Shown here: positions 189 to 41,800 of the stretch, piece after piece | Layout: every line of letters starts with the position of its first letter | Position numbering within the stretch: the first letter of the stretch is position 1 | Assembly (NCBI GenBank): GCA_964527585.1 | Contig: CAZGPE010000003.1 | Span: 26,723-90,722, forward strand | DNA: 64,000 nt | From: an uncultured Eubacteriales bacterium | Lineage (GTDB): Bacteria; Bacillota; Clostridia; Oscillospirales; Acutalibacteraceae | Reading direction: 5' to 3' | Translations under genes and position numbers: made by a program | Notes under the pieces: model-generated | What the model saw: the letters and a program-made list of their open reading frames with translations, nothing else | The model's database searches: none | Told to the model about the DNA's origin: nothing

Positions 189-2828
189 TCATTTAAGCAT
201 TGATTTAACGATTTCTTCAACTGAATTAAGGGCTTCTCCGATTTTGGAAATATCTTTTGCACCGGCCATAGCACTGTCGGGTTTTCCGCCGCCGGAACCA
301 CCTGCTATCATTGCAACCTGACGGACGATATTGCCTGCATGAGCGCCGGCAGCGATTGCATCTTTACCTACATAGCAAGCAAAAGAACCTGTTGCTTTTT
401 CATCGTTAATTCCTGCGAAAACGGCAACGGCATTTCCGCTTTGTTCTTTAACTTTATCACATACGGAACGAAGTTCGTTAGCGGTAGCCGAGCCTAAATC
501 GGCAGTTATTATTTTAATTCCGTTAACCTCTTTTGCGTTGTTATAAAATTCCGCAACGGTTAAGGAAGCGAGATGAGCGTTGAGATCGTCGAATTCTTTT
601 TGTACGCTCTTGAGTTCCGCTACTGTTGATTTCGCTTTTGAAACGATGTCCGAGACATTTGCCGTCTTGAGAGCGGCAGCAGTATCGAGAATTACTTTTT
701 CGTTTTTCTCAATGTATTTCAATGTGTTAAATCCGGTAACGGCAACGATTCTTCTTACACCCGAAGCGACAGAAGATTCGGATATGATTTTGAACAGACC
801 GAGATTTCCCGTGTTTTCGGCGTGTGTACCGCCGCAGAGTTCCGTTGAAAATTCACCGGCTTTTACAACCCTTACAATGTCGTCGTATTTTTCTCCGAAA
901 AGAGCCATTGCGCCGAGTTTTTTCGCTTCTTCAATCGGCATTTCTTTTGTTTCGACTTTTGCCGCAGCCATTATCGAAGAGTTGACTTCATCTTCAACAG
1001 CCTTGAGTTCTTCTTCGGTTAAAGCGGAGAAATGAGTGAAGTCAAAACGGACTTCATCCGCATTTACAAGCTGTCCGGCCTGTTCGACATGACTGCCGAG
1101 AACTTTTCTCAATGCTGCTTGGAGAAGGTGGGCTGCCGTATGGTTTCTCATTGTTGCTTCTCTTACCGCTTTATCTACGCAAGCGGTAACTTTATCGCCG
1201 ATTTTAAGAGTTTCGCCTTCAATAAGAGAACCGTGGTGAAGAATTACGCCTTCATGATTCTTAGCCGTAGAGGAAACTTCAAAGACGAAATTATCTCCCT
1301 TGATAAGTCCGCAGTCTCCGACTTGACCGCCGCTTTCGGCATAAAATGAAGTTTTATCAAGTATTAAGGTTATATCATCATCGGAAGAAGCGTATTCTTT
1401 TCTCTGTGCGTCGACAATAATCGCTTTGATCTGTGCCTCGCTTACGAGAGCGGTATAGCCGACAAATTCGGTTTTTTCAATATCTTTTGTCGCATTGCCG
1501 CTTCCTTCCCATGCTTCAGCGCCGGCACCTTTATGAGCCGCTCTGGCACGGAGCTTTTGCTCTTTTACAAGTTGAGCCCATTTTTCTTCATCAACCGTAA
1601 GACCTTTTTCTTCGAGAAGTTCTTTGGTTAAATCAATGGGGAAGCCGTATGTGTCGGAAAGTTTGAAAGCATCTTCACCGCTTAAAACGGTTCCGTCAAG
1701 GTTTTCGACCATCTGATTGAAAATCATGAGACCGGTGTCAATGGTTTTCGCAAAACTTTCTTCTTCGGCTTTAATAACATTTATAATGAAATCGTGCTTT
1801 TCAACAAGGTTGGGATATGCGAGTTTGTTTTCGTTGATAACGGTTTCGGCAACTTCGGAAAGGAAGGTTCCTTGGATACCGAGAAGCCGTCCGTGTCTTG
1901 CGGCTCTTCTCAAAAGTCTGCGAAGAACATATCCTCTTCCTTCGTTTGAAGGCATTACGCCGTCTCCGATCATCATTGTCGTACTTCTGATGTGGTCGGT
2001 GATTACACGGAGGGAAACATCGTTTTTTGCATCTTTGTGATATTCGATGTCTGCGATTTTCATTATGTGTTTCATAATGTTTTGAACGGTATCGACTTCA
2101 AAGAGGTTATCGACATCCTGAGAAATGCAGGCAAGCCTTTCAAGACCCATACCGGTATCAATGTTGGGATGAGCGAGTTTTGTGTAATTGTTGTTGCCGT
2201 CGTTTTCAAACTGAGTGAAAACGAGATTCCAGAATTCGATATATCTGTCGCATTCGCAACCGACTTTACAGTCGGGCTTGCCGCAACCGTACTTTTCGCC
2301 ACGGTCATAGTATATTTCCGAACACGGACCGCAAGGGCCTGCGCCGTGTTCCCAGAAGTTATCTTCTTTTCCGAAACGAACCATATGATCGGGAGAAACT
2401 CCGATTTTTTCGGTCCAAATACCGTATGCTTCGTCATCGTCTTCATAGACGCTGATATAGAGCTTTTCGGGATCCATTTCCATTACTTTTGTGCAGAATT
2501 CCCACGCCCACGGAATAACTTCCTCTTTGAAATAATCTCCGAAAGAGAAGTTGCCGAGCATTTCAAAGAAAGTACCGTGTCTTGCCGTTTTGCCGACATT
2601 TTCGATATCGGGTGTACGGATACATTTTTGGCAGGTTGTAACTCTTTTTCTCGGCGGAGTTATTTCACCCGTGAAATACTTCTTCATAGGAGCCATGCCG
2701 GAATTTATTAAAAGCAGGCTTTTGTCGTTATTGGGAATAAGAGAAAAACTGTCAAGTCTTAAATGACCTTTTGACTCAAAGAATTCAAGATATTTTTCCC
2801 TTAATTCATTAAGTGATGTCCATTCCAT
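189..2828 (-). CDS. alaS: Alanine--tRNA ligase
   Basis: 879-aa ORF with a class II AlaRS catalytic core (FFEMLGNFSFGDYFK). It also has an editing domain with HTAAHLL and CGGTH zinc motifs and a C-terminal DHHA1-like tail (GGSGGGKPDSAMAG). Confidence 0.97.
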   Translation of the reverse strand: MEWTSLNELREKYLEFFESKGHLRLDSFSLIPNNDKSLLLINSGMAPMKKYFTGEITPPRKRVTTCQKCIRTPDIENVGKTARHGTFFEMLGNFSFGDYFKEEVIPWAWEFCTKVMEMDPEKLYISVYEDDDEAYGIWTEKIGVSPDHMVRFGKEDNFWEHGAGPCGPCSEIYYDRGEKYGCGKPDCKVGCECDRYIEFWNLVFTQFENDGNNNYTKLAHPNIDTGMGLERLACISQDVDNLFEVDTVQNIMKHIMKIADIEYHKDAKNDVSLRVITDHIRSTTMMIGDGVMPSNEGRGYVLRRLLRRAARHGRLLGIQGTFLSEVAETVINENKLAYPNLVEKHDFIINVIKAEEESFAKTIDTGLMIFNQMVENLDGTVLSGEDAFKLSDTYGFPIDLTKELLEEKGLTVDEEKWAQLVKEQKLRARAAHKGAGAEAWEGSGNATKDIEKTEFVGYTALVSEAQIKAIIVDAQRKEYASSDDDITLILDKTSFYAESGGQVGDCGLIKGDNFVFEVSSTAKNHEGVILHHGSLIEGETLKIGDKVTACVDKAVREATMRNHTAAHLLQAALRKVLGSHVEQAGQLVNADEVRFDFTHFSALTEEELKAVEDEVNSSIMAAAKVETKEMPIEEAKKLGAMALFGEKYDDIVRVVKAGEFSTELCGGTHAENTGNLGLFKIISESSVASGVRRIVAVTGFNTLKYIEKNEKVILDTAAALKTANVSDIVSKAKSTVAELKSVQKEFDDLNAHLASLTVAEFYNNAKEVNGIKIITADLGSATANELRSVCDKVKEQSGNAVAVFAGINDEKATGSFACYVGKDAIAAGAHAGNIVRQVAMIAGGSGGGKPDSAMAGAKDISKIGEALNSVEEIVKSMLK

Positions 2829-2867
2829 TTGTATTATCTCCTTGCGGAAAAGTTTGAAAACACTTTT

Positions 2868-2903
2868 CCTTTATAATCTTAAAAATTATACCTTTATAAT
2901 CTT
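2868..2903. repeat. Two copies of a 13-bp direct repeat CCTTTATAATCTT, 23 bp apart
   Basis: Exact copies at 2868..2880 and 2891..2903 in the alaS / sensor-kinase divergent intergenic region. They flank the alaS -10 box. Confidence 0.9.
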
Positions 2904-2913
2904 TTGTTGTCAA
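2885..2913 (-). promoter_or_regulatory. Consensus sigma-A promoter for alaS
   Basis: The reverse strand reads TTGACA (2913..2908), a 17-nt spacer, then TATAAT (2890..2885). This is about 55 nt upstream of the alaS ATG. Confidence 0.7.
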
Positions 2914-2932
2914 CCGAGATTGAATAAAATGC

Positions 2933-2961
2933 TTGTTTTATTTAAGATGGTATAGTATAAT
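2933..2961 (+). promoter_or_regulatory. Putative promoter of the sensor kinase operon
   Basis: TTGTTT (2933..2938), a 17-nt spacer, then TATAAT (2956..2961). Confidence 0.4.
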
Positions 2962-2993
2962 TACAGTAAATTTAAGCGGGAGCGTGAATAGGA

Positions 2994-4964
2994 TTGAAAA
3001 CCGTTGCGGATAAAAATAAATTCAAATCCAATATCATGCTTGTTACGATAGTTTTGCTTATCTTTTTAATGATAGTCGGAACTGTCTTTTTTTGCAATTT
3101 ATATGCGGAAAAGAAGAGCGGCGCTCTTGAACTCGATTCCGCTCATTACGACCTTTCCGAAATTGATTTCGATTCCGACGGCAGTGCATATCTGTCTGGA
3201 GAGTGGGAACTTTATTACGGGAAGTTTTTAATTACCGACGGCGAAAAAACAAACGGTGCTCCCGAAAGAATAAATGTTCCGTCGTCTTGGTCCGGGATTG
3301 TTGCAACCGGAAGGCACGATGCAGGCGGGTATGCTACATACAGATGTTATGTTTCTTCGGTTAACAGCGAAAGTTATCTCACTGTGTATATTCCGAATGT
3401 TGCCTGCGCATATAAAATTTATATTAACGGCACTCCGGTTACGGTAAGCGGTACGCTTAGCAAAACTTACAACAAAACATTTACAAGTGCAAGCCACTAT
3501 TCTTTGCCTTATAAGTTCGACAGCGGAAAAGAATATGAAATTACGGTTGAGATTTCATCGGATCATTATTCGGGAATTTATATGCCCGTTTTGATGACAA
3601 AGTATACTTATGACAATTCGGCTTTGAGTTCGCTGATTGCGTTTAGGTTTGTGCTTTGCGGAATAGTTTTCCTTTGCGGACTTATTTTTATCATCTTCAG
3701 AAGGTTTGTCAGCAAAAAACTTTATTCCGTATGGCTTCCCGTTCTCTCGTTCTTTCTTTTGCTGAGAATGTTGATAACGACTGAAGCGTATACGGTAATT
3801 CAGCCGTTACTGTTTAATATCGGTTATGAAGAAATAAACATATTTGTTTTCGTTTCGACATTTATTATCAAACTTGTCGCTCTTATATATATTGTCAAAA
3901 GTTTGAATATTAAAGCGGCGGACAGTACATTCGTAACTTTCGGAGCGATTTTCCTTACACTTGCAATCGGTATAAACTTTTTGCCGAATTCGATTTTCGA
4001 TACTTATTATTTTGTAAGTTTGCAAATTTTATCTTCGATAATAGATTTGTACATAATAAATAAACTCTGTATCGAAATCGTAAATAAAACTCAATATGCC
4101 GTGCTGTATCTTATTTCCTATCTTTTCTTGGTTTACGGTATATTTATGGATGTAATTTATACGAACGGAATGATAGGTATTAACTGTTCTTCCGTAATGC
4201 CGGCGTGCTTCTTCGCTTTTACGGTAATAACGCTTATTATTCACGCTTTGCGAATTAAACAGATGTATAACACCGCTTTGCGTGTACGCAGTCTGGAAGC
4301 CGATCTCGAAAGAGCAAATACTGCGGTTATGATTTCTCAAATTCAGCCGCATTTTCTTTATAATGCTCTTAACACCATAAAATCACTGATTAAAAGAGAT
4401 CCTAAAACTGCGGAAAAAGCGGTAATTGATTTTTCGCTGTATCTAAGAGGGAATATGGACAGCCTTACGCAAAAAGATATGATTTTATTCAGTGAGGAAC
4501 TCGACCATATCAAATATTATTGCAATATCGAAAAATTGCGTTTTCAGGATAAACTGGAAGTTGTCTATAAAATCGAAACCGACAACTTCTTTGTTCCGAC
4601 GCTGAGCGTTCAGCCGATTGTCGAAAATGCCATAAAACACGGGGTTACCAAAACCGCAGAAGGCGGAACCGTTATTGTTTCTTCATACGAAGATGACAGC
4701 AGTTACTATATTAAAGTCGAAGATAACGGCAAGGGCTTTGATGTTGAAAAAATCGCAGCGGACAGCGGCAGATCCCATATCGGTATTTCCAATATGAAAA
4801 AACGATTTGAAACTCTTGCGGGAGCGGATATTTCGATTGAAAGCGAAATAGACAAAGGAACCGTTGTTACGGTTAAACTTCCGAAAAACAGAAATGTCCG
4901 AACTTTGCAGGAAAGTCTTCGTTTAAGTGAAGATTACGGTCTTTTCGGGGAGATGAATATATGA
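2994..4964 (+). CDS. Sensor histidine kinase with an extracellular 7TMR-DISMED2-like beta-sandwich, 7 TM helices, a LytS/YehU-type His_kinase domain and an HATPase domain
   Basis: 656-aa ORF with a TTG start. It has an N-terminal TM helix, a roughly 175-aa exo-domain (GEWELYYGKF...GYATYR...YINGTPV) and seven predicted TM helices. The LytS-type phosphoacceptor region (ISQIQPHFLYNALNTI) is followed by an ATPase (QPIVENAIKHG, DNGKGF). Confidence 0.9.
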   Translation: MKTVADKNKFKSNIMLVTIVLLIFLMIVGTVFFCNLYAEKKSGALELDSAHYDLSEIDFDSDGSAYLSGEWELYYGKFLITDGEKTNGAPERINVPSSWSGIVATGRHDAGGYATYRCYVSSVNSESYLTVYIPNVACAYKIYINGTPVTVSGTLSKTYNKTFTSASHYSLPYKFDSGKEYEITVEISSDHYSGIYMPVLMTKYTYDNSALSSLIAFRFVLCGIVFLCGLIFIIFRRFVSKKLYSVWLPVLSFFLLLRMLITTEAYTVIQPLLFNIGYEEINIFVFVSTFIIKLVALIYIVKSLNIKAADSTFVTFGAIFLTLAIGINFLPNSIFDTYYFVSLQILSSIIDLYIINKLCIEIVNKTQYAVLYLISYLFLVYGIFMDVIYTNGMIGINCSSVMPACFFAFTVITLIIHALRIKQMYNTALRVRSLEADLERANTAVMISQIQPHFLYNALNTIKSLIKRDPKTAEKAVIDFSLYLRGNMDSLTQKDMILFSEELDHIKYYCNIEKLRFQDKLEVVYKIETDNFFVPTLSVQPIVENAIKHGVTKTAEGGTVIVSSYEDDSSYYIKVEDNGKGFDVEKIAADSGRSHIGISNMKKRFETLAGADISIESEIDKGTVVTVKLPKNRNVRTLQESLRLSEDYGLFGEMNI

Positions 4965-5761
4965 GAGTGATTGCGGTAGACGACGAAAAACTCGTGCTTG
5001 AAGATATACGGGATATATGCGAAAATATCGAATTTGTCGAAAGCGTCGAACTGTTTTCAAATCCTGCACAGGCTATCGAATACACTGAAAATAACAGAGT
5101 CGATGTCGCTTTTCTTGATATTGAGATGCCGATTATGTCGGGACTGGAACTTGCAGAAAAACTTAATGAGATAAACAGTGCCGTCAAAATAATTTTTGTT
5201 ACAGGATTTAAGAATTATGCTTATGAAGCGTTCGGAGTAAATGCCGTAGGATATGTTCTCAAGCCTTTTTCCGACGATATGATTTTACAGCAACTCGAAA
5301 AACTGAAAAGGGACGGTAGATCGGATTGCGAAAAAACGGTTTTTATTAAAACTTTCGGATACTTCGATGTGTTTGTTAACGGAAAATCGGTTGCTTTTTC
5401 GTCAACTAAAGCAAAAGAACTTTTGGCTTTGCTTGTTGACCGAAGAGGAGGTTCGGTAAGTACGGAAAATGCCGTGTCTTTGCTTTGGCCGGGCAGGAAA
5501 TACGACGAAGCGGTTCAAAGCCTTTTCAGAAAGGTTTTAAGAAATCTTCGCAGTGTTCTTTCGCAGGCGGGTATAAGCGAAATCCTCGTTGATGCGAGAA
5601 ATCAGCGAAGCGTTGATATGTCGAAGTTTGATTGCGATTTGTATTCTCTGATTAAATCCGACACGCAAGCGCTTACGCAGTACACCGGCGAATATATGAA
5701 CGGCTATGCTTGGGCAGAGCCGACAAAGGAATATATTGATAATTTAATTGGGAGGAATTGA
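4961..5761 (+). CDS. Response regulator: REC plus a SARP/OmpR-type winged helix with a short BTAD-like tail (COG3947-like)
   Basis: The start overlaps the kinase stop (ATGA). The REC domain is visible (VDDE...FLDIEMP...KP). The C-terminal part, [46 protein letters not shown]...LRNLRSVL, is typical of SARP-type DNA-binding domains. Confidence 0.85.
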
Positions 5762-12581: not shown

Positions 12582-13364
12582 GTGTATTTTATTATTTACG
12601 GTATTGTAATATTGATTGCCACTACGCTCGGTGCGTTTGTCGGGCTTGGCGGCGGAGTTATAATTAAGCCTGTTCTCGATGTTATAGATTTTCATTCGTT
12701 GAGCCAGGTTGCGTTTTTTTCTTCGTGTGCGGTATTTTCGATGTCCGTAACTTCAACGGTAAAACATATAAGAAATAAAACTTCGATAAATATGAAATTC
12801 GTTTTGCTTTTCGCACTCGGTTCGGTTGTCGGCGGTTTTGCGGGTAACAGGATATTTAATCTCGCTTTAAGCAAAAGTTCATCTCCCGATGTTGTAAAAG
12901 GCGTGCAATCGCTTCTGCTATTTATTCTTCTTGTTGCTGTTATAGTTTCCGTAAATGTAAAATTAAAGAAATTTAATATTAAAAAGCCGGTTTTTATAAC
13001 TCTTACCGGACTTTTACTCGGAATGACGGCGGCTTTTTTGGGGATCGGCGGCGGGCCTATAAATGTCGCAGTGCTTACGGTTTTATTTTCCTTTACCATG
13101 AGGGATGCGGCGGTGTATTCCGTTGCGATTATTTTCTTTTCGCAGTTGTCCAATCTGATAACGACTTATGTCAATGTCGGTTTTGCTGACTTTGATTTGA
13201 AATACTTGCTTGTGATAATACCCGCAGCGATATTTGGCGGATTTATCGGGGCTAAACTTAACAGAAAATGTAACGAAAAAACAATCAGAACCGTTTTTAC
13301 GGTTGCTGTTTCCGCTGTGGCGGCACTGTCTTTGTATAATGCCGTTACCGCTTTTATAAACTGA
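12582..13364 (+). CDS. TauE/SafE-family anion (sulfite/sulfonate-type) exporter
   Basis: 260-aa, 8-TM protein with two internal halves and GLGGG / GIGGGPI motifs typical of TauE/SafE (DUF81). GTG start with GGTGA upstream. Confidence 0.8.
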   Translation: MYFIIYGIVILIATTLGAFVGLGGGVIIKPVLDVIDFHSLSQVAFFSSCAVFSMSVTSTVKHIRNKTSINMKFVLLFALGSVVGGFAGNRIFNLALSKSSSPDVVKGVQSLLLFILLVAVIVSVNVKLKKFNIKKPVFITLTGLLLGMTAAFLGIGGGPINVAVLTVLFSFTMRDAAVYSVAIIFFSQLSNLITTYVNVGFADFDLKYLLVIIPAAIFGGFIGAKLNRKCNEKTIRTVFTVAVSAVAALSLYNAVTAFIN

Positions 13365-13380
13365 AGAAAGAGGTGCAGTT

Positions 13381-14700
13381 TTGAGACCGAATATTATTTT
13401 TTATTTCAGCGACCAACAGCGTTGGGATACAGTCAACGAAACCGCAACGCCGAATCTTATGCAGTTGAGCAGAGAGGGAATTAAGTTTGATAATTCCTAC
13501 ACCTGCCAGCCGGTATGCGGTCCGGCAAGAGCGTGCTTGCAAACGGGACTGTATGCTACGCAAAACAAGTGCTATTGGAACGGAATACCCCTTCCGAGAG
13601 ATGTTAAGCCCCTTGCCGAATATTTTAACGAAGCGGGATACGAAACCGCTTATGTCGGAAAATGGCACTTGGCATCCGACAGATTGCCTCACGGATTTCA
13701 CTGTGAAAAAACTGCGGTGCCGGAAGAATTACAGGGCGGATACAAAGACTGGTGGCGTGGTGCCGATGTCCTTGAGTTTACATCACACGGATATGACGGA
13801 TATGTGTTTGACAAAGCCGGAAATAAAATTGATTTCAAAGGTTACCGTGCGGACTGTATTAACGATTTTGCACTTGAATACCTTGATCAAAAGACTTCGG
13901 ATAAACCGTTCTTTATGTTTGTTTCGCATATCGAACCTCATCATCAAAATGACCGACACTGTTATGAAGGTCCTAAAGATACGGTTGAAAACTTCAGAGA
14001 TTATCCTCTTCCCGACGATTTGACCTTTCTTAAAGGCGATTACGAAAAAATGTATCCCGATTATATGGCTGCGATAAACAGCCTTGATAAAAATGTCGGA
14101 AAACTTGTAGATAAACTTAAAGAAAAAGGTCTTTATGATAATACCGTAATCATTTATACCAGTGATCACGGATCTCATTTTAAGACGAGAAACCTCGAAT
14201 ATAAGCGTTCTTGCCATGACAGTGCGACACATACGCCTTTGATTATAAAAGGCGGTATGTTTGAAGGCGGAAAATGCGATGACAGACTTGTAAGTTTAAT
14301 TGACCTTCCGGCGACTTTGCTTGATATTGCGGGAATTGAAATCCCCGAGAGTTATATGGGCCGTTCGCTTGTAAAAGAACTTGAAACCGGCGAAGAAAGA
14401 GACTGTGTATTTATTCAAATCAGCGAAAGTCAATGCGGCAGGGCGATCAGAACCAAAAAGTACAAATATTCCGTAAGAGCCTTAACCGCTACGGGTTATG
14501 TTATGCACAGTTCACCGGTATATTTTGAAGATTATCTTTACGATCTTGAAAAAGATCCGATTGAAAAGAATAATCTCATTAAATCGCCGGAGTATAAACA
14601 AGTCAGAAAAGAACTTAAACAAATGCTTATCAGGGAAATGACGGCTGCGGGGGAGAAAAAGCCTGTTATTTTACCTGCTTTATATGCAAAAAAGAAATAA
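13381..14700 (+). CDS. Sulfatase (S1 family, Cys-type); no signal peptide
   Basis: TTG start behind AGAGGTG. It has an N-terminal FSDQQRWD metal site, a CxPxR formylglycine motif (CGPAR in YTCQPVCGPARACLQTG), GKWH and YTSDHG motifs. Confidence 0.9.
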   Translation: MRPNIIFYFSDQQRWDTVNETATPNLMQLSREGIKFDNSYTCQPVCGPARACLQTGLYATQNKCYWNGIPLPRDVKPLAEYFNEAGYETAYVGKWHLASDRLPHGFHCEKTAVPEELQGGYKDWWRGADVLEFTSHGYDGYVFDKAGNKIDFKGYRADCINDFALEYLDQKTSDKPFFMFVSHIEPHHQNDRHCYEGPKDTVENFRDYPLPDDLTFLKGDYEKMYPDYMAAINSLDKNVGKLVDKLKEKGLYDNTVIIYTSDHGSHFKTRNLEYKRSCHDSATHTPLIIKGGMFEGGKCDDRLVSLIDLPATLLDIAGIEIPESYMGRSLVKELETGEERDCVFIQISESQCGRAIRTKKYKYSVRALTATGYVMHSSPVYFEDYLYDLEKDPIEKNNLIKSPEYKQVRKELKQMLIREMTAAGEKKPVILPALYAKKK

Positions 14701-14725
14701 TAAAAAAAGGAAATAGGAGTCTGTA

Positions 14726-16123
14726 ATGGAAAAGAAATACTTAACTCTTAAAGAGAAAGTTACATTTCCGATGGCGTCTTTCGGACGAAGCGGAGTGTAT
14801 ACGATTATGTCGATGTTCCTGCTTATTTTCTACACCGATGCGGCAGGACTTGATCCGATTCATGCCGGAAACATTATTCTTGCGGGAAGAGTTTTCGATG
14901 CTTTGAACGATCCCATAATGGGAATGATTGTTGACCGTACACATACGAAATGGGGTAAAATGAGACCTTATCTTCTCTTTTCCCCGATACCGATTGCCGT
15001 GTCGACAATTCTTTTGTTTTTCGCACCTCAGTTTTCGTCATATTGGGCAAAGGTAGCCTATGCCGCAGTTACATATATCCTTTGGGGCGTTATGTTTACG
15101 ATTCAGGATGTTCCTTTCTGGGGATTGAGTTCTGTTATTACCCCGAACGAAGCGGAACGCACAAGATTTATTTCAAACGGAAGACTCGGCAGTACCGCAG
15201 GCGGAATTTTACCGACCGTACTTATTCCCGTGCTTGTTGCCGAAAACGCTCTCGGACTGAGAAAAGGATATTTCGTTTCGGCGGTAATATTTGCCGTGAT
15301 TGCCGCTGTATTTTCTATTCTTCCTTTCTTTACCGCTAAGGAAAGAGTTGTCGAGGAAAGAAAAGATACAAGAACCTTCAAAGAGAATTTCCGTCTCATC
15401 GCAAAGAATAAAGTTTTGCTCATCGTTATTATTTCCGCTGTTCTCGGCTCAACAATGGTAATGGCCAATGTTTGCGCAACATATATCCATTATTATTTAA
15501 TCGGCGTTGACAATTACGGAATAATTCCGGACGGATTTAAGATGACCTCTCTTACGGTGGCTGTCGGTGTGGGTATGGTACCCGCAATGGTAATTATGCC
15601 TGCTTTAAGAAAGAGATTTTCTCTTAAAGCCATATATATCGGTTCTTCGGTATTCGGAATAATATCCCACCTTGCGTTTTGGTTCATAGGTTATGATAAC
15701 ATTTATCTCGTATTGCTCTGTCTTGTGTTTATGGGCGTACCGCTTGGAATTTACAATGTTATAACCTATGCTCTTATTGCCGACAGCGTCGATTATATCG
15801 AATGGAAAACAGGAGAGAGAGCCGACGGAGTTTGCTTTGCTTTCCAGACTCTTTTAAGCAAAATTTCGGCCGGACTTGCCACTTATGCGGTAAGTATCGT
15901 GCTTAAAGTATGTCAGTTCCAGGCTCCGATTGACGGCGTTATTCAGGTTCAGTCCGAACAGACAAAGACAGGATTGTTCTTTATGATTACGATTTTGCCC
16001 GCAATCGGCTTTGCTCTTACGATGATTCCGATGTTCTTTAATGATTATACAGGCAAGAAAAAAGCCGAAATTCAAAAAGAACTTGAACTCAGAAGAGCAA
16101 AGGCAAATGCCGAAAGTATATAA
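14726..16123 (+). CDS. Glycoside-pentoside-hexuronide (GPH):cation symporter family transporter
   Basis: 465-aa, 12-TM protein with a MelB/YicJ-like signature (RVFDALNDPIMGMIVDRT..KWGKMRPY). Confidence 0.88.
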   Translation: MEKKYLTLKEKVTFPMASFGRSGVYTIMSMFLLIFYTDAAGLDPIHAGNIILAGRVFDALNDPIMGMIVDRTHTKWGKMRPYLLFSPIPIAVSTILLFFAPQFSSYWAKVAYAAVTYILWGVMFTIQDVPFWGLSSVITPNEAERTRFISNGRLGSTAGGILPTVLIPVLVAENALGLRKGYFVSAVIFAVIAAVFSILPFFTAKERVVEERKDTRTFKENFRLIAKNKVLLIVIISAVLGSTMVMANVCATYIHYYLIGVDNYGIIPDGFKMTSLTVAVGVGMVPAMVIMPALRKRFSLKAIYIGSSVFGIISHLAFWFIGYDNIYLVLLCLVFMGVPLGIYNVITYALIADSVDYIEWKTGERADGVCFAFQTLLSKISAGLATYAVSIVLKVCQFQAPIDGVIQVQSEQTKTGLFFMITILPAIGFALTMIPMFFNDYTGKKKAEIQKELELRRAKANAESI

Positions 16124-17594: not shown

Positions 17595-18317
17595 ATGAAT
17601 TTCTTAAAACAAAACAGTGAAACTTCCTGCGCTATGCCGTATGTTTCGGCAATTATAGTAGCGGCAGGCAATTCAACAAGAATGGGCGGCGTCAATAAGC
17701 AATTTTTGCTTATTGACGGCGTCCCTGTGCTTATTAGGACTTTACAGGCTTTTGAGGATTGCGGTGCGGTTAACGAAATTGTGGTTGCCGCCCGTGAGGA
17801 AGATATTCCGAGAATGTTTTCTATGATTAAGGAATACGCTTTGACAAAAGTCGTTGACATTGTCAAAGGCGGAGCGACCCGTCAGGAAAGTGTTTTTAAT
17901 GCGATTAAACACACTTCTCCCATGAGCGAGTATTTTGCGATTCATGACGGCGCAAGACCTCTTGTAAGCGAAAAAATAATCACAGATACGGTTAACGCCG
18001 CTTTTGAAACCGGAGCGGCGGCAACCGGAGTTCGTGTTAAAGATACGATTAAGGTAGTTGATGACAGCGGTGTAATAACTTCGACTCCGGACAGGAATTA
18101 TCTTTGGGCGGTGCACACGCCTCAGGTGTTTGAGAGAAAACTTTATTTGTCGGCAATGGAAAATGTTGAAAATTCCGCCGATTTTACCGATGACTGCCGT
18201 CTTGTCGAAGAATACGGAGTAAAAGTTAAAATGACAGAGGGCAGTTATGAAAATATAAAAATAACAACACCCGAAGATACTCTTATCGCACAGGCGGTTT
18301 TATCGGGAAGGGAGTGA
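17595..18317 (+). CDS. ispD: 2-C-methyl-D-erythritol 4-phosphate cytidylyltransferase
   Basis: IIVAAGNSTRMG nucleotide-binding motif, IHDGARP and an ENIKITTPEDL-like C-terminus. The start could instead be the internal ATG at 17634. Confidence 0.92.
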   Translation: MNFLKQNSETSCAMPYVSAIIVAAGNSTRMGGVNKQFLLIDGVPVLIRTLQAFEDCGAVNEIVVAAREEDIPRMFSMIKEYALTKVVDIVKGGATRQESVFNAIKHTSPMSEYFAIHDGARPLVSEKIITDTVNAAFETGAAATGVRVKDTIKVVDDSGVITSTPDRNYLWAVHTPQVFERKLYLSAMENVENSADFTDDCRLVEEYGVKVKMTEGSYENIKITTPEDTLIAQAVLSGRE

Positions 18318-18323
18318 AATTAA

Positions 18324-18800
18324 ATGATGAGAATAGGCCACGGATATGATGTTCATAAACTTGTTTCGGGTAGGAAACTTATACTCGGCGGTGTTGAAAT
18401 CGAAAACGGCGGAGTCGGACTTTTGGGACATTCCGATGCCGATGTGCTTTTACACGCAATAAGCGATTCCCTTTTGGGCGCTGCCGCTTTGGGCGACATC
18501 GGAAAGCATTTCCCCGATACCGACGAGAGATATAAAGGCGCTGACAGTCTTGTTCTTTTGAAAAATGTCGGAGAACTCATAAAAGAAAAAGGATATAATA
18601 CAGTAAATATTGATGCGACTGTTCTCGCTCAGGCGCCAAAACTCGCACCGTTTATTTACCGGATGCGTAAAAATATTGCCGATGCTTTGGCGATTGATGT
18701 CGATTTTGTCAGCGTTAAAGCGACAACCGAAGAAGGTTTGGGCTTTACAGGAACTAAAGAGGGAATATCGGCACACTGTGTTTGTCTTATTGAAAAATAA
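18324..18800 (+). CDS. ispF: 2-C-methyl-D-erythritol 2,4-cyclodiphosphate synthase
   Basis: [23 protein letters not shown] and ATTTEGLGFTG are canonical IspF motifs. Confidence 0.95.
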
Positions 18801-18902
18801 GTGAAAGAGATGATGAAAATCATCTCTTTTTTCTTTCTTGAGATTGACTATGTTATCAACTTTTGGTATTATATTTCTATAATAAAAACAACGGAGGATA
18901 AG

Positions 18903-19700
18903 ATGGAAAAGTATTATGATTATTGCGACCATATCGAGAATACGCTAAGCGCTTTTTCCGATAATAAAACGAATTACATCTTCAAAAAAAGAACACTTGA
19001 CGAGATGGAAGTCCGTACCGGAGAAGTTATTAAAAGAGGATTGAAAGATAAAAAAGTTGCTCACGATTTAATTCTCGATGAATATAATTCCGACAGAATA
19101 TTAAGAGATTACAAACAGTATCTCGAAGTTCTTAAAGAAAAAAGAATGGTTAAACTTGTTCCGCTTGTTTCTCTGATTTGTGTGCTTGCGGCAGTGCTTG
19201 TTTATTTGTGCATAGGTTTTATTTTTGATGTTTGGCATCCGACTTGGCTTCTTATCGAGGGTACGGCAACTGCCGGCGTAATGGCAATAATGCTTACTGC
19301 CGTTACAGTGCTTCGTCGCCGCAAAAAATTCTATGCTTTAATGAGGGTTATCGTTGCGGGTTCGATAATGGTCGGAACGCAGTTTTTGTTCCTGTTTATC
19401 AGAATACTTTTCGATAATGAAAACGCATATCTTATTTTCCTTTTTGCGCTCGCAATGATGTTTATCGGAGATTTAATTCTCGCAACCGTTACCAAACAGA
19501 GACTCGTATTTGTAAATTATCTTATAACAATACCCGTTGTGTTTATTTTCGCATTTGTTATTTTCGGGCTTGTTACTAAACTTTGGAGTATCGGAAGAAT
19601 AATAATTATTGTCGGCTTTGTTTTGGATCTCGGGGTAATAGCCGCAATGATAATTCGCAATAAAAAACTTGCATATAATCCTGAGGAGGACGACAGATGA
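18903..19700 (+). CDS. Hypothetical polytopic membrane protein (cytoplasmic helical N-domain plus about 5 TM helices)
   Basis: ATG at 18903 sits behind GGAGGA. The 265-aa product begins MEKYYDYCDHIEN.... Its stop overlaps the start of the next gene (ATGA). Confidence 0.65.
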   Translation: MEKYYDYCDHIENTLSAFSDNKTNYIFKKRTLDEMEVRTGEVIKRGLKDKKVAHDLILDEYNSDRILRDYKQYLEVLKEKRMVKLVPLVSLICVLAAVLVYLCIGFIFDVWHPTWLLIEGTATAGVMAIMLTAVTVLRRRKKFYALMRVIVAGSIMVGTQFLFLFIRILFDNENAYLIFLFALAMMFIGDLILATVTKQRLVFVNYLITIPVVFIFAFVIFGLVTKLWSIGRIIIIVGFVLDLGVIAAMIIRNKKLAYNPEEDDR

Positions 19701-20977
19701 AGAAAAAATTAAATGCGGAACTTTGGGATAAAATGCATTATCTTTTCCGTGATTTCAATGACCGAATGGTTCATGTCGAATTGCATTATGATTTTGAAAT
19801 AGATATTGAAGTGCTTAAAACCGTTCTTATTTGTTTCCTTGAAAAAGCACCGGTTCTTCACTCTTCGTTTGTCGATAACAAGGTTAAACCTTACTGGAAA
19901 ATCAACGATTACGATATAGACGAAGTGCTTCATGTTTCCCGTCCCGAAAATCTTGATGAAGCAATAAACGATTTTCTCACTCAGTATATTCCGCCGGAAA
20001 ATAAACTTCAAATTCAGGTTGCGGTATTTTTCAGCGAAGGCAAATCAGTGCTTTGTATAGTCGAAAACCATATGTGTATGGACGGCGGAGACTTTAAGTA
20101 TTTTATGAAAGCGCTTTGTAAGAACTATAACGATTATCTCGAAAACAAGATAAGTCCGATTGATTTGAAGTCGGGTTCCCGTTCTTTTGAGGAAGTTTAC
20201 AGCGATTTTTCAAGTACCGAAAAGAAAATGGCTGAAAATCTTTATAAAAATGTTTGCGCAAAAGATGACCACAAATTCCCTCTTACTCCCGACAGTATCA
20301 GGGACCGCTCTTTTATCGCCCGCAGGAAATTCGACAAAGAAAAGTTTTCCCGCTTAAGAGCATCTGGTAAAAATCTCGGCGCTACGGTTAACGATATGCT
20401 TGTTGCCGCTTATTTTTACAGCCTTTACGAGCTTGCCGGATTTAAGCGTGATGAAAGCGTTACGATTTCGTGTGCGATTGACTTGCGCCGTCATATGAAA
20501 GATACAAGCGAAACCGGAATCACAAATCAAACCGCATTTATGCAGTGTAATATCAGCGAGTTGGGAGAAGACATATTCCAAACTCTCGAATATACCAAAC
20601 AAAGTGTCAGCAAGTTCAAAAACGATAAGTTTATGGGACTTTACGGCTTACCTCTTTTGAAACTCGGATACAGCATAATGCCGCAAATGGCTTCCGAAGA
20701 AGTTATCAAAGTCGGATATTCAAATCCGCTTATCGCAATGAGTAATATAGGTGTTCTTGAGACGGATAAACTTTCTTTGGACGGTCATCCGCCGATCGAC
20801 GGATTTATGACGGGCGCTGTTAAATATAAGCCTTATGTACTTTTGTCCGCAACATCTATCAATTCGGAACTTACACTTTCGATGTGTGTTCGTGGTAACG
20901 AAGAAGATGAAAAGACAGTCGAAAGATTTTTCGACCTTATGGAAGAAAATATCGAAACTCTTTCATCGAAAGCATAA
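19697..20977 (+). CDS. Stand-alone condensation-domain-like (HxxxD) acyltransferase
   Basis: 426-aa soluble protein with NHMCMDGGD (codons around 20069..20092). This is the HHxxxDG-type catalytic motif of NRPS C-domains, PapA5, WS/DGAT and alcohol acetyltransferases. It is translationally coupled to the preceding membrane protein. Confidence 0.7.
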   Translation: MKKKLNAELWDKMHYLFRDFNDRMVHVELHYDFEIDIEVLKTVLICFLEKAPVLHSSFVDNKVKPYWKINDYDIDEVLHVSRPENLDEAINDFLTQYIPPENKLQIQVAVFFSEGKSVLCIVENHMCMDGGDFKYFMKALCKNYNDYLENKISPIDLKSGSRSFEEVYSDFSSTEKKMAENLYKNVCAKDDHKFPLTPDSIRDRSFIARRKFDKEKFSRLRASGKNLGATVNDMLVAAYFYSLYELAGFKRDESVTISCAIDLRRHMKDTSETGITNQTAFMQCNISELGEDIFQTLEYTKQSVSKFKNDKFMGLYGLPLLKLGYSIMPQMASEEVIKVGYSNPLIAMSNIGVLETDKLSLDGHPPIDGFMTGAVKYKPYVLLSATSINSELTLSMCVRGNEEDEKTVERFFDLMEENIETLSSKA

Positions 20978-21066
20978 AATTATTAAACAGGCGACCGACA
21001 AGTGTTTTATTAAACGCTTTAAGTTGCCTGCTTTTTTATATTTTGTACTGTGAAGGGAACAGATTG

Positions 21067-21996
21067 ATGAATATACTTCATATCAGATATGCCGTTGAAG
21101 TTGCAAAATACGGTTCGATAAACAAAGCAAGTGAAAAACTCCTTATCGCCCAGCCGAATCTCAGCCGTTCGATAAAAGAACTCGAAGCGGAATTGGGAAT
21201 AACGATTTTTGACAGAAGTTCAAAAGGTATGGTTTTAACCGTTGAAGGCGAGCGTTTTATAGGATATGCGAAAAATATATTAAAACAAATCGACGATGTC
21301 GAAAAACTATATAAAGAAAATGCCGGTGTCGAACGCAAAAATTTTTCCGTTTCCGTTCCGAGAGCAACATATATTTCGGATGCTTTTGCCGCATTTTCGA
21401 AAATGATAGGCGATAAACCCGTAGATGTTTTTTACAAAGAGACAAATTCTTCGAGAACGATAACAAATGTTGTTTCCGATAATTATAAACTCGGTATTGT
21501 GCGTTATGCTCAGAATTACGAAAAGTATTTTACGGCTTTGTTTGAAGAGAAGAATTTGAAATACGAAGATATTTCGAATTTTAATTATGTTCTTGTTATG
21601 AGTAAAAACAGCCCTCTCGCTGATTGCGAAGAAATACATTTCGAAGATTTAAGACCGTTTATCGAACTCGGCCACGCAGACCCTTATGTTCCGTCGCTTT
21701 CGCTTGCGGAAGTTAAAAAAGAAGAACTTCCGGATGATGTGGAGAGACGAATATTCGTTTTTGAACGGGCGAGTCAGTTTACCGTGCTTTCGAAAAACGA
21801 AGAGACATTTATGTGGGTATCTCCGATGCCCGAAGAGATACTTTGCCGCTACGGTTTGGTTCAAAAAATTTGTCCGGACAATAAAAAAATATATAAAGAT
21901 GTTTTGATTTATCATAAAAACTATAAGTTAACGGATCTTGATAAAAAATTCATCTCTCAAGTTCATATTGCAAAAGAAAAGCACATTGTATTATAA
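21067..21996 (+). CDS. LysR-family transcriptional regulator
   Basis: MNILHIRYAVEVAKYGSINKASEKLLIAQPNLSRSIKELE is an LTTR HTH, followed by a substrate-binding-like C-terminal domain. The start was trimmed to the ATG at 21067. Confidence 0.9.
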   Translation: MNILHIRYAVEVAKYGSINKASEKLLIAQPNLSRSIKELEAELGITIFDRSSKGMVLTVEGERFIGYAKNILKQIDDVEKLYKENAGVERKNFSVSVPRATYISDAFAAFSKMIGDKPVDVFYKETNSSRTITNVVSDNYKLGIVRYAQNYEKYFTALFEEKNLKYEDISNFNYVLVMSKNSPLADCEEIHFEDLRPFIELGHADPYVPSLSLAEVKKEELPDDVERRIFVFERASQFTVLSKNEETFMWVSPMPEEILCRYGLVQKICPDNKKIYKDVLIYHKNYKLTDLDKKFISQVHIAKEKHIVL

Positions 21997-38838: not shown

Positions 38839-41800
38839 ATGAACAGAAATTTCAAAAAAATCGAGAGTGTGGTATTAAGCGTAATACTTATAATGCTTAT
38901 GCTTACACCCGGATTCAGTGTAGTTGCCACTGATCCGACAATTACGATTACCGATGAAGACGGTGCGGAAATCACCGAGGCGGTAACCGTAAAAGAATAC
39001 GGAAATGTCAAACTCAAATATGTTCTTTCCGAAGATGTTCCCGAAGACGCAACAGTCGAATGGGAAAGTAACCTTCCTTTGCTCGCCGGAGTAGACGAAA
39101 ACGGAAAGGTAACGGGTTATGACTATTCGAAAGCCGCAATAATACAGCTTTGGCTTGACGAAGAAGTCAGACCTATTCCGATTGTCGGTCCGACTACGGC
39201 GGCTGCGATTGAAAAAGCAATTGAAAACAGTGGATATGATCTTGAAACCGTTAATACCGATTTGCTTGTTGCACTTGTTAGGGGTGTTGCCGGTGATTCG
39301 ATTGCGGACAGTCTTAAAGAATACCTTGATAATATGAATGTTGAGGTAACCGCTACCGTTTACGATGCCGACGGAAACGCTCTTTGCAGCGATACGGTTG
39401 AAATACTCGTTACACAAAGTACCGTTGCTTCCGTTGCACCGACCGGTGTTCATATTACAAACAAGAAAAAAGTTCCGCTTAAAGTCGCTTTGGGCGCAAC
39501 AGTTCAGCTTTACGGTGCCGTAACTCCCGTAAGACTTAAGCAAGGTGTTAAGTGGAGCGTTGACACAAGCATTTTTTCGGGTTCGACAAAAAATGCGACG
39601 GTTACCGATGACGGACTTGTAACTTTCACGGGTATCGGTGAAGCGAAAATTAAAGTTCAGCCCGAAAGCACGCTTTATGCCGCTTTTTCGGACAGCATAA
39701 CATTTGAAGTCGTAGATCCTTCCGAACTTCCCGTAACCGATTTTGATATTACCGGTACATTGAGTGTAAACGAAGGCGAGACAACTCAGCTTTCAATAGA
39801 AAATCTCGATCCTGCCGGTGCATACACGGGAGATATTGTTTGGACAACTTCGGATCCGTTGATTGCGGTAGTTGACGCAACAGGCCTTGTAACCGGACTT
39901 GACGGCGGTTCGATCAGTAAAAGCGTTGACATTACGGCAACACTCGGAGAGGTTACGAAAACAGTAAGCGTAACCGTTAAAAGAAGCGGAATAACCGGTT
40001 CACTCTCGGGAATTGAAATCGAGGGCGAAACCGTAATCGCAAACGATGCAACTTCACAGTATTCTTCGACTCTTTTTCCGTCCCGACTCAACAGTAATAA
40101 GTCAGTTGTAAGAGAATGGGGACTTGTCGATAAGGAAAATGCCGACAACATCGTTTGGGCAACAAGTGAAACTCCCGCAGAAATCTCAATCGCAAGTGTT
40201 GACTGCAACGGTCTTTTAACACCGAAATCAAGCGGTGTTATCACCCTTGTTGCAAAAGCGACATATAACGATTCTTCTGTTCAGACTTCGATAGAAATTA
40301 CGGCGGGAAACGCCGTTACCGATTTTACGATAACCGGTAAAACAAGTGTAACCGAAAACTCGACAATTCAGTTGAGTATCGAAAATATCGCACCGGATGA
40401 TTATGACGAGGCGTTACTTTCGACTGTTAAATGGTCAAGTGCCGATCCGTTAATAGCAAGTGTTGACGAAAACGGTGTCGTAAAAGGTCTTGATGCAGGC
40501 GGATACGGTACTTTCAACAGTTCCAAAACCACAATTTACGCAACTATAAGCGGTGTTACACGCTCTTTTGAAATAACCGTTAAAGGTGCGTTTATAAACT
40601 ATGTAACATCTGCGAGAATTGAAGGCTTTGATTATGTAATTAAAGATTTTCCCGTTCAGTATCAGGGAAAATTCACTCCGGAAAGACTTGATATAACCAC
40701 AACTCTCTGGGGCCTTCCGACCGACGAAGGCGAAGCGCCTTGGGAAGCATCAAATTCATTAAGTAAAGCCGATAACACCGAAAACAGTATTGCAAGCGTT
40801 TCTTCTTCGGGCGTTGTAACCGGTAAAACAGCAGGCGAGACAACTCTTCATCTTTTCGGAAGAAGATTGCTCACTTCTCATAACGAAACGACCAAAGATA
40901 TAACGGTAGTTGAAATTGAACCGAAAAGTATTACCGTTACTCCGCCTACGGCGACCGAATATGTCGAAGGGGACACACAGCTTGATCTTACAAATCTCAA
41001 AGTCGAACTCACTTATGACAGAGCGGACATTGAGCAGTATTACGGTGATACATCGGAACTTTATACCGATGAACAGTTAAGAGTTGAAGTAACCGATTAC
41101 ACCGTCAGCGAAATAAATCAGAAAATTCTCGATACGGAACAGTATATAGTTATTTCGGTGGTAAGAGCGGGAAAAACTTTCCGTGGCGTTTTTGCGATTA
41201 CTCTTGCTTCTAAAGATCTAACAAGCATTGAATTGACCAATCCTCAGTACAGATATTTGGAAGGTGCGACAAAACTTGATTTGAGTGAACTTAAAGTTTT
41301 GGCGAATTACAGCAATGCCGAAAGCGAATATGTAACGGATTATGATGTTGATAAGGATTTGTTTGATCCCACTCTTTATAATGAAGAACAGCAAATAACC
41401 GTCAGTTATTCCCATGCGGATAAAACCGCAACCGCAACCTTCCCCGTTATAGTTTACGGTATACCGGTTGTCAGTGTTGACGAAAACGGATATGGCGGCG
41501 AGTGGACAGATAAAGATGTTACATTTACTCTTTCTTCCACAAACGAACTCGAAGGAGTAACTTACTATTTCCGTAATTCCGAAGATGCCGATTGGATTGC
41601 GGTTTTGGATAACACGGTAACCGTTAATAAAAATGTCAATGAAACTTATTATTTCAAAGCGGTAAACAGCGCAAATGTCGAAAGCGAATCGACTAAGGGC
41701 TATGTTGTAAAAAGAGACGATGTTACACCTTCATTTACGCTCGAAAAAGAAAACGAAGCCTTAACCAATCAGTCATATAACATAAATATTAAAGATTTAA

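Follow-up and report, generated by a model that had tools for sequence, protein, structure and literature searches.

A two-gene unit downstream of ispD-ispF

We analysed a 64,000-nucleotide stretch of DNA from an uncultured bacterium of the Acutalibacteraceae (contig CAZGPE010000003.1, positions 26,723 to 90,722; the whole stretch is called the window below), in which two overlapping open reading frames (ORFs), named A and B here, lie on the forward strand. ORF A (18903-19700) starts with ATG and encodes a 265-amino-acid (aa) integral membrane protein to which no family could be assigned, and ORF B (19697-20977) encodes a soluble, stand-alone protein of 426 aa that belongs to the condensation-domain superfamily. 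The stop codon of A and the start codon of B are contained in a single ATGA tetranucleotide (19697-19700), and both genes are preceded by strong Shine-Dalgarno sequences: GGAGGA at 18893-18898 for A, and GAGGAGGA at 19683-19690, inside the 3' end of A, for B, the latter spanning 19683-19700 on the forward strand together with the ATGA overlap. An earlier interpretation of this DNA, made from the letters alone (the sequence-only reading), had described a 265-aa protein with about five transmembrane (TM) helices coupled through ATGA to a 426-aa protein; the sizes and the ATGA stand, and the helix count has to be raised to six on the evidence of hydropathy and the AlphaFold2 model. It had also placed the pair downstream of ispD-ispF and upstream of a LysR gene, in agreement with the coordinates obtained for ispD (17595-18317), for ispF (18324-18800, directly upstream of A) and for the LysR-type regulator (21043-21996, directly downstream of B). 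A GTG start of A at 18801, which appears in a mechanical ORF list, was rejected because it crosses a terminator hairpin and because the homologs all start at the Met equivalent to 18903. Neither A nor B is a chance ORF, as each has many homologs and their pairing recurs in every related locus.

The signals around the pair were also inspected. A terminator-like hairpin with a T-run (18803-18838, forward strand; 12-bp stem; RNA fold -16.1 kcal/mol, z = -3.2) begins just past the ispF stop codon (18800), between ispDF and A-B. A promoter-like site follows at 18844-18872 on the same strand (TTGACT-17 nt-TATTAT with a TG extension); this putative promoter, a consensus match only (10/12 positions), lies 31 nucleotides (nt) 5' of the ATG of A, and an extended -10-like box is present 35-60 nt 5' of A in most related loci as well. 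Downstream of B, an intrinsic terminator is predicted at about 20985-21040 on the forward strand, consisting of a long hairpin and then CUUUUUUAUAUUUU (-20.7 kcal/mol, z = -4.8), and none of 200 shuffled sequences folded as stably (0/200). Bounded in this way, by a terminator and a putative promoter on the ispF side and by a strong terminator 3' of B, the pair looks like a bicistronic unit of its own, that is, an autonomous module with its own putative promoter and terminator.

The -10 box is overlapped by a palindrome at 18867-18884 (TATTATATTTCTATAATA; arms TATTATA and TATAATA around TTTC), a possible operator. In the closest relatives (loci L003-L010) another palindrome, TATAATGACATTATA, occupies the same spot; the palindrome of the window is not kept in the wider clade, and its meaning is uncertain. 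Such differing palindromes at the -10 box of A-B suggest a lineage-specific candidate operator for some regulator.

A and B occur together in related genomes

The pair was followed through 84 loci, comprising 80 GTDB species genomes in which B is at least 68% identical to that of the window and 4 metagenome contigs. In L066 the contig ends inside B, hence 83 loci have a complete B, and an A homolog lies directly 5' of B in all 83 of them. The two genes overlap by 1-16 nt in 82 of the 83 loci (16 nt in 63, 13 in one, 7 in two, 4 in three and 1 in twelve), and a 3-nt gap is found in one. An apparent exception, L015 (950-3935), proved to be a tandem A'-A-B arrangement in which the second A overlaps B by 16 nt; in this and in two further tandem duplications of A (L157 and L158, described below) the copy beside B keeps close spacing or overlap. 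Taxon labels of these genomes are Ca. Fimenecus, Acutalibacteraceae, Oscillospiraceae or Ruminococcaceae, and their sources are human, chicken, rabbit and ruminant guts; no Acutalibacteraceae/Ca. Fimenecus species genome examined was without the pair. Two "cleanbin" assemblies, labelled Butyrivibrio crossotus (L005) and Bifidobacteriaceae (L041), carry B genes 90% and 71% identical to that of the window; these are probably mis-binned contigs or wrong taxon labels.

A sister clade, represented by metagenomes and with B proteins about 47% identical to window B, extends the association: in 69 loci an A-family protein (hidden Markov model E ~1e-50, about 282 aa, six TM helices) is encoded directly 5' of B. 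The proposal of the sequence-only reading that A and B form a two-gene module is therefore borne out by 83 paired loci out of 83, by the overlap in 82 of them and by the 69 sister-clade loci; separate occurrence of the two genes in other genomes, which it had named as the observation that would speak against such a module, was not encountered in the 83 loci. A and B are tightly co-inherited, and probably translationally coupled.

When the neighbouring genes of 82 loci were clustered, A and B were the only conserved ones. The ispD gene and an aminotransferase gene are neighbours of the pair in 7/82 loci, all of them close relatives of the window. An ispDF operon, and with it the link to isoprenoid metabolism that had been suggested earlier, was rejected on this limited synteny and on the terminator-like hairpin and promoter-like site between ispF and A; for annotation purposes, the ispDF neighbourhood is no guide to the function of A-B. 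The MFS_2 transporter encoded nearby was likewise rejected as a third component, being present in 22/82 loci, with window and L001 copies that are 37% identical.

The two proteins evolve at different rates. Within the clade, mean pairwise identity is 75.7% for B and 36.7% for A, and between the window and L003 the nonsynonymous divergence (dN) is 0.078 for B and 0.172 for A, dN alone being comparable here since synonymous divergence (dS) is saturated. As judged from these values, B is under very strong constraint. About 30 database homologs are detectable for A, and these are few because A evolves fast.

B belongs to the condensation-domain superfamily

B has no hydrophobic segment. It passes the Pfam Condensation family (PF00668) with 40.2 bits against a gathering cut-off of 30.6 (residues 26-266), and precomputed annotation places PF00668 in nearly all of its 120 closest homologs. 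The AlphaFold2 model of B, built with 55 homologs (predicted template-modelling score 0.72, mean predicted local distance difference test score (pLDDT) 67.9, four low-confidence segments), shows at this moderate confidence the two-lobed fold of paired CAT-like halves. Foldseek aligned the model with a probability of 1.00, E values of ~1e-16 to 1e-13 and TM-scores of 0.45-0.62 to structures of PapA5 and of condensation (C), epimerization (E) and cyclization (Cy) domains of nonribosomal peptide synthetases (NRPSs); its fold matches include AzeD, PapA5, the SrfA-C C domain, the TycA E domain, TRI3, CDA-C1 and SgcC5. The absence of a C-domain/CAT-like fold from the predicted structure, on which the earlier acyltransferase proposal might have foundered, was thus not observed, and by threshold, fold and motif B is a member of the condensation-domain superfamily.

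The motif lies at 20066-20092 on the forward strand and reads N124-H125-M-C-M-D129-G130-G-D (residues 124-132), preceded by V-E. It is a variant of HHxxxDG in which Asn stands for the first His while the other key residues (second His, Asp and Gly) are kept (NHMCMDG); the same Asn occurs throughout the closer relatives. The second His of HHxxxDG is the one regarded as catalytic. Across 59 representatives with 23-73% identity to B, four residues are invariant (W67, H125, D129 and G352) and a further set is nearly so (Q105, G130, Y144, R162, N232-D233, D262, R264, N277, K308, N350, G373, K376 and P379). R264 aligns with the Arg of the EGHGRE motif of E domains, at which the B family has DLRR, and presumably is the expected salt-bridge partner of the motif Asp. 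This pattern of conservation argues, from the sequence, for an active enzyme. The sequence-only reading had taken NHMCMDGGD for an HHxxxDG-type motif of a C-domain/CAT-like enzyme, and the PF00668 match, the fold and the invariance of H125 and D129 all agree with that assignment.

A profile of the 59 representatives was compared with the sequences in the Protein Data Bank (PDB). NRPS epimerization domains came first (bacitracin synthetase 3 E, 9rde, 3e-24; PvdL E2; GrsA E, 5isw; TycA E, 2xhg), followed by C and Cy domains, then PapA5 (1.7e-8), VibH (1.9e-6) and WS/DGAT enzymes (~2e-4), the best matches among NRPS E and C domains, including the SrfA-C C domain (8f7f), running from 3e-24 to 1e-10. 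The solved structures closest in sequence to the B family are accordingly epimerization domains, and not condensation domains or WS/DGAT. With B alone as query, phmmer gave as its closest PDB sequence the WSD structure 7nxg, at E = 0.027. In contrast to NRPS E and C domains, B stands outside any multidomain synthetase, lacks a flanking carrier domain and has DLRR in place of EGHGRE; the adjacent adenylation and thiolation domains of a canonical NRPS module are likewise absent, a neighbouring adenylation-thiolation-reductase gene being found only in distant Bacteroidota relatives.

Free-standing proteins of this fold have been characterised elsewhere. PapA5 of M. tuberculosis (1q9j), VibH (1l5a) and OaaC of Coprococcus eutactus (PMC13310621) are, like B, proteins of about 420 aa with a two-lobed C fold and a catalytic His in an HxxxDG-type motif, and PapA5 is among the best structural matches of B (Foldseek E ~2e-16). 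They differ from it in several respects: identity is 14-15% only, no polyketide synthase (PKS), NRPS or acyl carrier protein (ACP) gene lies near B, whose obligate partner is instead a six-TM protein with a HAAS-like head, and the motif of B is NHxxxDG rather than HHxxxDG or (D/H)HxxxDS. The defining models, motifs and contexts place B outside the PapA5, fatty-acid amide (FAA) and WS/DGAT subfamilies. The PapA5-type models NF006787 (23.8 against a cut-off of 396) and PapA_C (PF16911; 18.8 against 30) score below threshold, the former by far, and no PKS or MmpL gene occurs near A-B in the window or in 82 clade loci. FAA C domains of the OaaC type are set apart by the published motif, (D/H)HxxxD[S/A], and by a cluster context of ACP and acyl-ACP-enzyme genes (PMC13310621), neither of which applies to B. 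The WS/DGAT enzymes (7nxg, 6chj) belong to the same superfamily, have the xxNDxxLA motif in common with B and give it a weak match to their C-terminal domain, but all WS/DGAT models stay below threshold: PF06974 scores 17.0 against a cut-off of 20.7 (E = 0.0065), TIGR02946 scores 11.4 against 309.95, and PF03007 gives no match at E <= 1. PADLOC defence-protein models matched neither A nor B at E <= 0.1.

The B family is large. It comprises 1,204 clusters at 50% identity with E <= 1e-3 (178 with E <= 1e-30), its members are encoded in at least 483 species genomes, and almost all of them are stand-alone proteins of about 420-430 aa. With numbers of this size, and with OaaC characterised (PMC13310621), the earlier description of free-standing C-domain enzymes as rare in Clostridia was overstated.

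A combines a soluble head with six transmembrane segments

Hydropathy divides A into a helical, soluble head, some 60-80 aa long, and six hydrophobic segments. In the AlphaFold2 model (pLDDT 76.7), the head (residues 1-62, 18903-19088, forward strand; pLDDT 75-90) is formed by three helices (5-14, 22-44 and 50-60); the next helix is long and leads into TM1 (63-108), and TM2-6 follow at residues 116-139, 144-170, 173-196, 202-225 and 228-252, so that the six-TM domain covers residues of about 85-252 (19155-19658, forward strand) in hydropathy and model. From the positive-inside rule, A is predicted to have its N-terminus in the cytoplasm, where the head, RRRKK (139-143), TKQR (197-200) and the C-terminal tail would also lie. 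In the same orientation, the conserved W111, W115 and W228 would face outwards in loops, and R148, D190, T197 and Q199 would be on the cytoplasmic side, R148 and D190 being conserved charged residues in or near the membrane.

Within the head, G46 is invariant and D49, V52, L56 and E60 are nearly so. The head (mean identity 39.8% in the clade of the window) and the cytoplasmic loop 197-201 (63.7%) are among the better-kept parts of A, and as the head is well kept in a clade that has no PadR gene beside the pair, it presumably still binds something.

No significant match was obtained for A in the Pfam, NCBIfam or PADLOC families, weak DUF2207_C matches being detected in 11 of 33 A homologs (best E = 2e-4). 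Foldseek of the A model against the PDB gave no match below E = 0.8 (best 0.84), and a profile of A heads against PDB sequences retrieved spurious designed PPR repeats only, with 2O3L (DUF1048) not among the matches. As modelled, A resembles no solved transporter, flippase or enzyme.

A PadR gene adjoins A in several lineages of a sister clade

In 49 of the 69 sister-clade loci a PadR gene lies directly 5' of A; they form a widespread human-gut lineage (L088-L139) together with L096. In L089, for example, the PadR gene (2713-3099; Pfam PadR, 76.6 bits) stops 2 nt short of A (3101-3949), which is followed by B (3998-5287), while L157 (1949-5290) and L158, a third lineage with PadR in the operon, have the order PadR-A'-A-B, with two A paralogs. 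A common palindrome, GTAT(A/C)TAA-N5-TTATATAC, is located just 3' of the -10 box and upstream of PadR in L096 (~2752-2772) and in L157 (~1900-1920); as it occurs in two different PadR-A-B lineages, it is a candidate operator. The canonical PadR box ATGT-N8-ACAT was not found upstream of the window pair, upstream of the PadR-A-B operons or in the Listeria intergenic region described below, and lineage-specific palindromes stand upstream where it was sought.

The arrangement PadR-A-B is that of the HAAS-PadR membrane-signalling dyads. HAAS is a three-helix cytoplasmic domain N-terminal to multi-TM domains, including one termed "uncharacterized 6TM"; Ravi et al. (mSystems 2024, PMC11237479), who describe it, report a PadR-like protein encoded next to it in every case and propose the dyads as an alternative route, besides two-component systems, by which membrane stress is signalled. 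An example is the auto-repressed operon LltR(PadR)-Lmo0600(DUF1700)-Lmo0601, which its authors link to envelope-acting compounds (PMC6624303). A has the three consecutive N-terminal helices before a multi-TM part that are expected of HAAS proteins, and in the sister clade it follows PadR directly within one operon. Moreover, the A-family profile aligned with a PadR-adjacent 137-aa protein of Listeria ilorinensis (hhalign probability 89%, E = 2.3e-6, 101 columns), which itself matches Pfam HAAS below the cut-off (E = 0.0024-0.0054). A multiple alignment of A-family and Listeria heads is coherent, with G46 as its invariant Gly. The end of helix 3 reads L-G-[DN]-F or -V in the PadR-linked clade and in Listeria, and S-E-F-P or D-E-Y-N-S in the clade of the window. 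A appears to work like HAAS-type membrane signalling proteins and is probably derived from them. What sets PadR-A-B apart from the known dyads is its third gene, which encodes a C-domain enzyme and not Toastrack/DUF4097, PspC or VanZ; this combination is apparently undescribed in the two studies (PMC11237479, PMC6624303).

Distant relatives of B in other contexts

Relatives of B in Bacteroidota (about 25-35% identity) are in 4/4 loci followed by a 1,060-1,120-aa adenylation-thiolation-reductase gene, adjoining or overlapping (L086, 6001-10509; L087, 1088-5807; L169, 4001-8500; L170, 4001-8658), and these loci lack an A-like gene; C-like and adenylation-thiolation-reductase genes thus form a conserved cassette of two genes there. 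Two Listeria species, L. ilorinensis and L. costaricensis, have a B homolog transcribed away from a neighbouring operon of the order PadR-HAAS-like-TM-VanZ. In the intergenic regions (L085, 5863-6003; L168, 3861-4003), AATTACTCTATC(A/T)G occurs twice, each time as part of a palindrome; these are candidate operators at which PadR could act on transcription in both directions.

L. monocytogenes also has a B homolog (L171, 5977-7245 of NZ_CP030101.1), 29% identical over 99% of B and with the motif NHMLADGAGF. Its site corresponds to that of the Listeria sensu lato homologs, but it has neither the PadR operon nor an A-type partner. By its position between a penicillin-binding protein (PBP) gene and inlB, and by the annotation wording "weakly similar to a module of peptide synthetase", we equate it with lmo0439, on these two grounds only; it is a distant stand-alone member of the B family and, like B, has no assigned function. 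A published list of PrfA group III genes under joint control by SigB includes lmo0439 (PMC2679221), and the region between lmo0439 and lmo0440 serves as an "inert" integration site. The source sequence NZ_CP030101.1 (2.9 Mb) is a plasmid according to its PLSDB label, yet it carries chromosomal genes (inlB and the PBP gene) and looks like a chromosome. Stand-alone homologs with about 23% identity are found on megaplasmids of the Bacillus cereus group, and more distant metagenome relatives of B are in part alone and in part followed 3' by an unrelated TM protein.

A possible envelope-signal module and its alternatives

In the reading that we prefer, and to which we assign a probability of about 0.5, A-B descends from an envelope-signal module and is now without PadR, with A recruiting or gating, at the membrane, the cytoplasmic, acyl-ACP- or acyl-CoA-dependent acyltransferase B. 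B would be a catalytically competent enzyme of the C superfamily that works in the cytoplasm without an NRPS. As no dedicated carrier protein is encoded nearby, its donor would most plausibly be a thioester, either acyl-ACP from fatty-acid synthesis or acyl-CoA, and its acceptor would likely be a hydroxyl or amine of a membrane-proximal molecule. B is much better conserved than the genes around it, with about 70% identity across a bacterial family, which suggests an important and specific reaction at the membrane. A would be an N-in six-TM protein whose head is a divergent HAAS-type signalling domain. In organisms with PadR-A-B, by analogy with the HAAS-PadR dyads and LltR-Lmo0600-Lmo0601, A may sense a membrane or envelope cue and relieve repression by PadR, with B as the induced effector. 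In the lineage of the window, where PadR is gone from the locus and the head motif has changed and yet A and B overlap, being coupled more tightly in this way, and co-occur without exception, A may act on B itself, by docking it at the inner membrane face, by gating it according to the state of the bilayer, or both. We infer a physical interaction between A and B and a role of the pair in envelope stress; at the level of the family, a link to stress is offered by the SigB and PrfA control of lmo0439.

A bolder form of this idea, which we regard as rather doubtful, is that a repurposed HAAS-type sensor binds and gates a C-fold acyltransferase instead of PadR, giving a post-translational, membrane-state-coupled acylation switch that makes a new acylated lipid or metabolite in abundant gut Oscillospirales. 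If stress-responsive acylation of a lipid or envelope component were indeed the output, the pair would represent a new effector class for PadR/HAAS signalling and would help in approaching the stand-alone C-domain proteins of Firmicutes, among them lmo0439 with its co-regulation by SigB and PrfA. The two halves are of known kinds, namely condensation-domain acyltransferases and HAAS-like membrane proteins; their obligate pairing appears to be new, and no description of the A-B pair or of the PadR-A-B operon was found in the literature searched.

Several observations weigh against the envelope-signal reading. No PadR ORF is present within the 64-kb window, and none adjoins A-B in 82 clade loci, L078 having one PadR-like ORF on the opposite strand; about five sister-clade lineages are also without an adjacent PadR gene. 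Pfam HAAS (PF22564) and DUF1700 did not match A, any of 33 homologs of it or any of 9 isolated A-family heads, even at permissive E values, and the head of the window clade lacks the Gly of the GxP-type motif. The model of B is only moderately confident, as its pLDDT and four low-confidence segments indicate. A look for public sequencing runs that might show expression of the pair returned none. The coupling to adenylation-thiolation-reductase genes in Bacteroidota means that the B family may need a dedicated carrier protein. Finally, the L. monocytogenes locus, which is without the PadR operon, indicates that the PadR adjacency in Listeria sensu lato may result from an insertion next to a pre-existing gene; this adjacency, once considered as independent support, is weakened accordingly.

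Of the other explanations, the one that survives best, while still being unlikely, makes A a passive anchor, a flippase or an acceptor-presenting transporter, with the module acylating an isoprenoid-linked or other envelope precursor and tied to ispD-ispF. The acyltransferase fold and motif of B, the polytopic nature of A with R148 and D190 in or near the membrane, the strict co-inheritance of the two genes and the ispDF adjacency in the window and its closest relatives all fit this explanation. It is opposed by the small number of loci with that adjacency (7/82) and the terminator and promoter between ispF and A, by the lack of any Pfam family or solved transporter or flippase like A, and by the conserved soluble head common to PadR-partner proteins, which would be superfluous in a simple anchor. 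An acceptor-presenting or flippase role for A had been part of the sequence-only reading; it finds no match in Pfam, NCBIfam or solved structures, and the alignment of the head with a PadR-adjacent protein, together with PadR-A linkage in the sister clade, points instead to a signalling or regulatory partner.

We give somewhat less credit to the idea that B is a carrier-protein-dependent condensation enzyme of a dispersed pathway, making for instance a fatty-acid amide or N-acyl compound as OaaC does, with adenylation and carrier partners encoded elsewhere and A as exporter or immunity protein. NRPS E and C domains are indeed the best PDB sequence matches of the family profile, the Bacteroidota relatives are always followed by the adenylation-thiolation-reductase megaenzyme, and stand-alone C domains known from gut Clostridia use acyl-ACP to produce fatty-acid amides (PMC13310621). 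However, no AMP-binding, PP-binding or ketosynthase domain was detected in the 42 window ORFs scanned, in line with the earlier statement that no adenylation, thiolation or PKS partner exists there; the window has no ACP-like ORF of at least 50 aa, as probed with an ACP sequence; and no AMP-binding, PP-binding or ACP gene recurs near the pair in the 82 clade and 69 sister-clade loci. Moreover, the motif is NHxxxDG, whereas FAA C domains are reported to have (D/H)HxxxDS (PMC13310621), the phmmer search with B found nothing closer than WSD in a set of PDB sequences not checked for the presence of OaaC, and A shows no transporter features in Foldseek.

Improbable to a greater degree is a neutral-lipid synthase of the WS/DGAT type (wax ester or triacylglycerol), or a detoxifying O-acyltransferase acting on exogenous alcohols, sterols, bile acids or antibiotics, for which A would provide a docking site only. 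It draws on the weak matches to WS_DGAT_C (E = 0.0065) and 7nxg, on the common xxNDxxLA motif, on the NCBI name "WS/DGAT domain-containing protein" for a Listeria homolog, and on PadR regulons, classically concerned with detoxification or efflux (PMC6624303, PMC3506622), but it is contradicted by the sub-threshold scores of the WS/DGAT models given above and by the much better fit of the family profile to NRPS E and C domains (3e-24 against 2e-4). That B is catalytically dead and serves as a structural or regulatory partner of A, as N124 in place of the first His and the existence of non-catalytic C-like domains among the fold matches (e.g. the X domain, 6m7l) might suggest, is very hard to reconcile with the very strong constraint on B and with a second His and Asp that are invariant down to 23% identity along with R264, N232-D233 and the other motif positions.

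Surroundings of the pair in the window

Beyond B, the segment 21043-27034 contains the LysR-type regulator gene and then genes for a bifunctional AdhE, an APH/RIO-like small kinase and an [FeFe]-hydrogenase-like protein, and this order is kept in the closest relatives (L003-L010). Otherwise the window has the content of an ordinary chromosome, with alaS, a histidine kinase and response regulator, formate-tetrahydrofolate ligase, metK, a sulfatase/TauE/MFS_2 cluster, an [FeFe] hydrogenase, ligA, engA, ruvB, a glmM-type mutase and ECF transporter genes. The cluster upstream of A-B (12582-16123) encodes a TauE/SafE sulfite-exporter-like protein, a sulfatase and the MFS_2 (GPH-family) transporter, which suggests that a sulfated glycan, or some similar compound, is taken up and desulfated. 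A 1,920-aa ORF at 38839-44601, in which Big_2 (residues 299-380) is the sole recognisable domain, probably encodes a large cell-surface protein.

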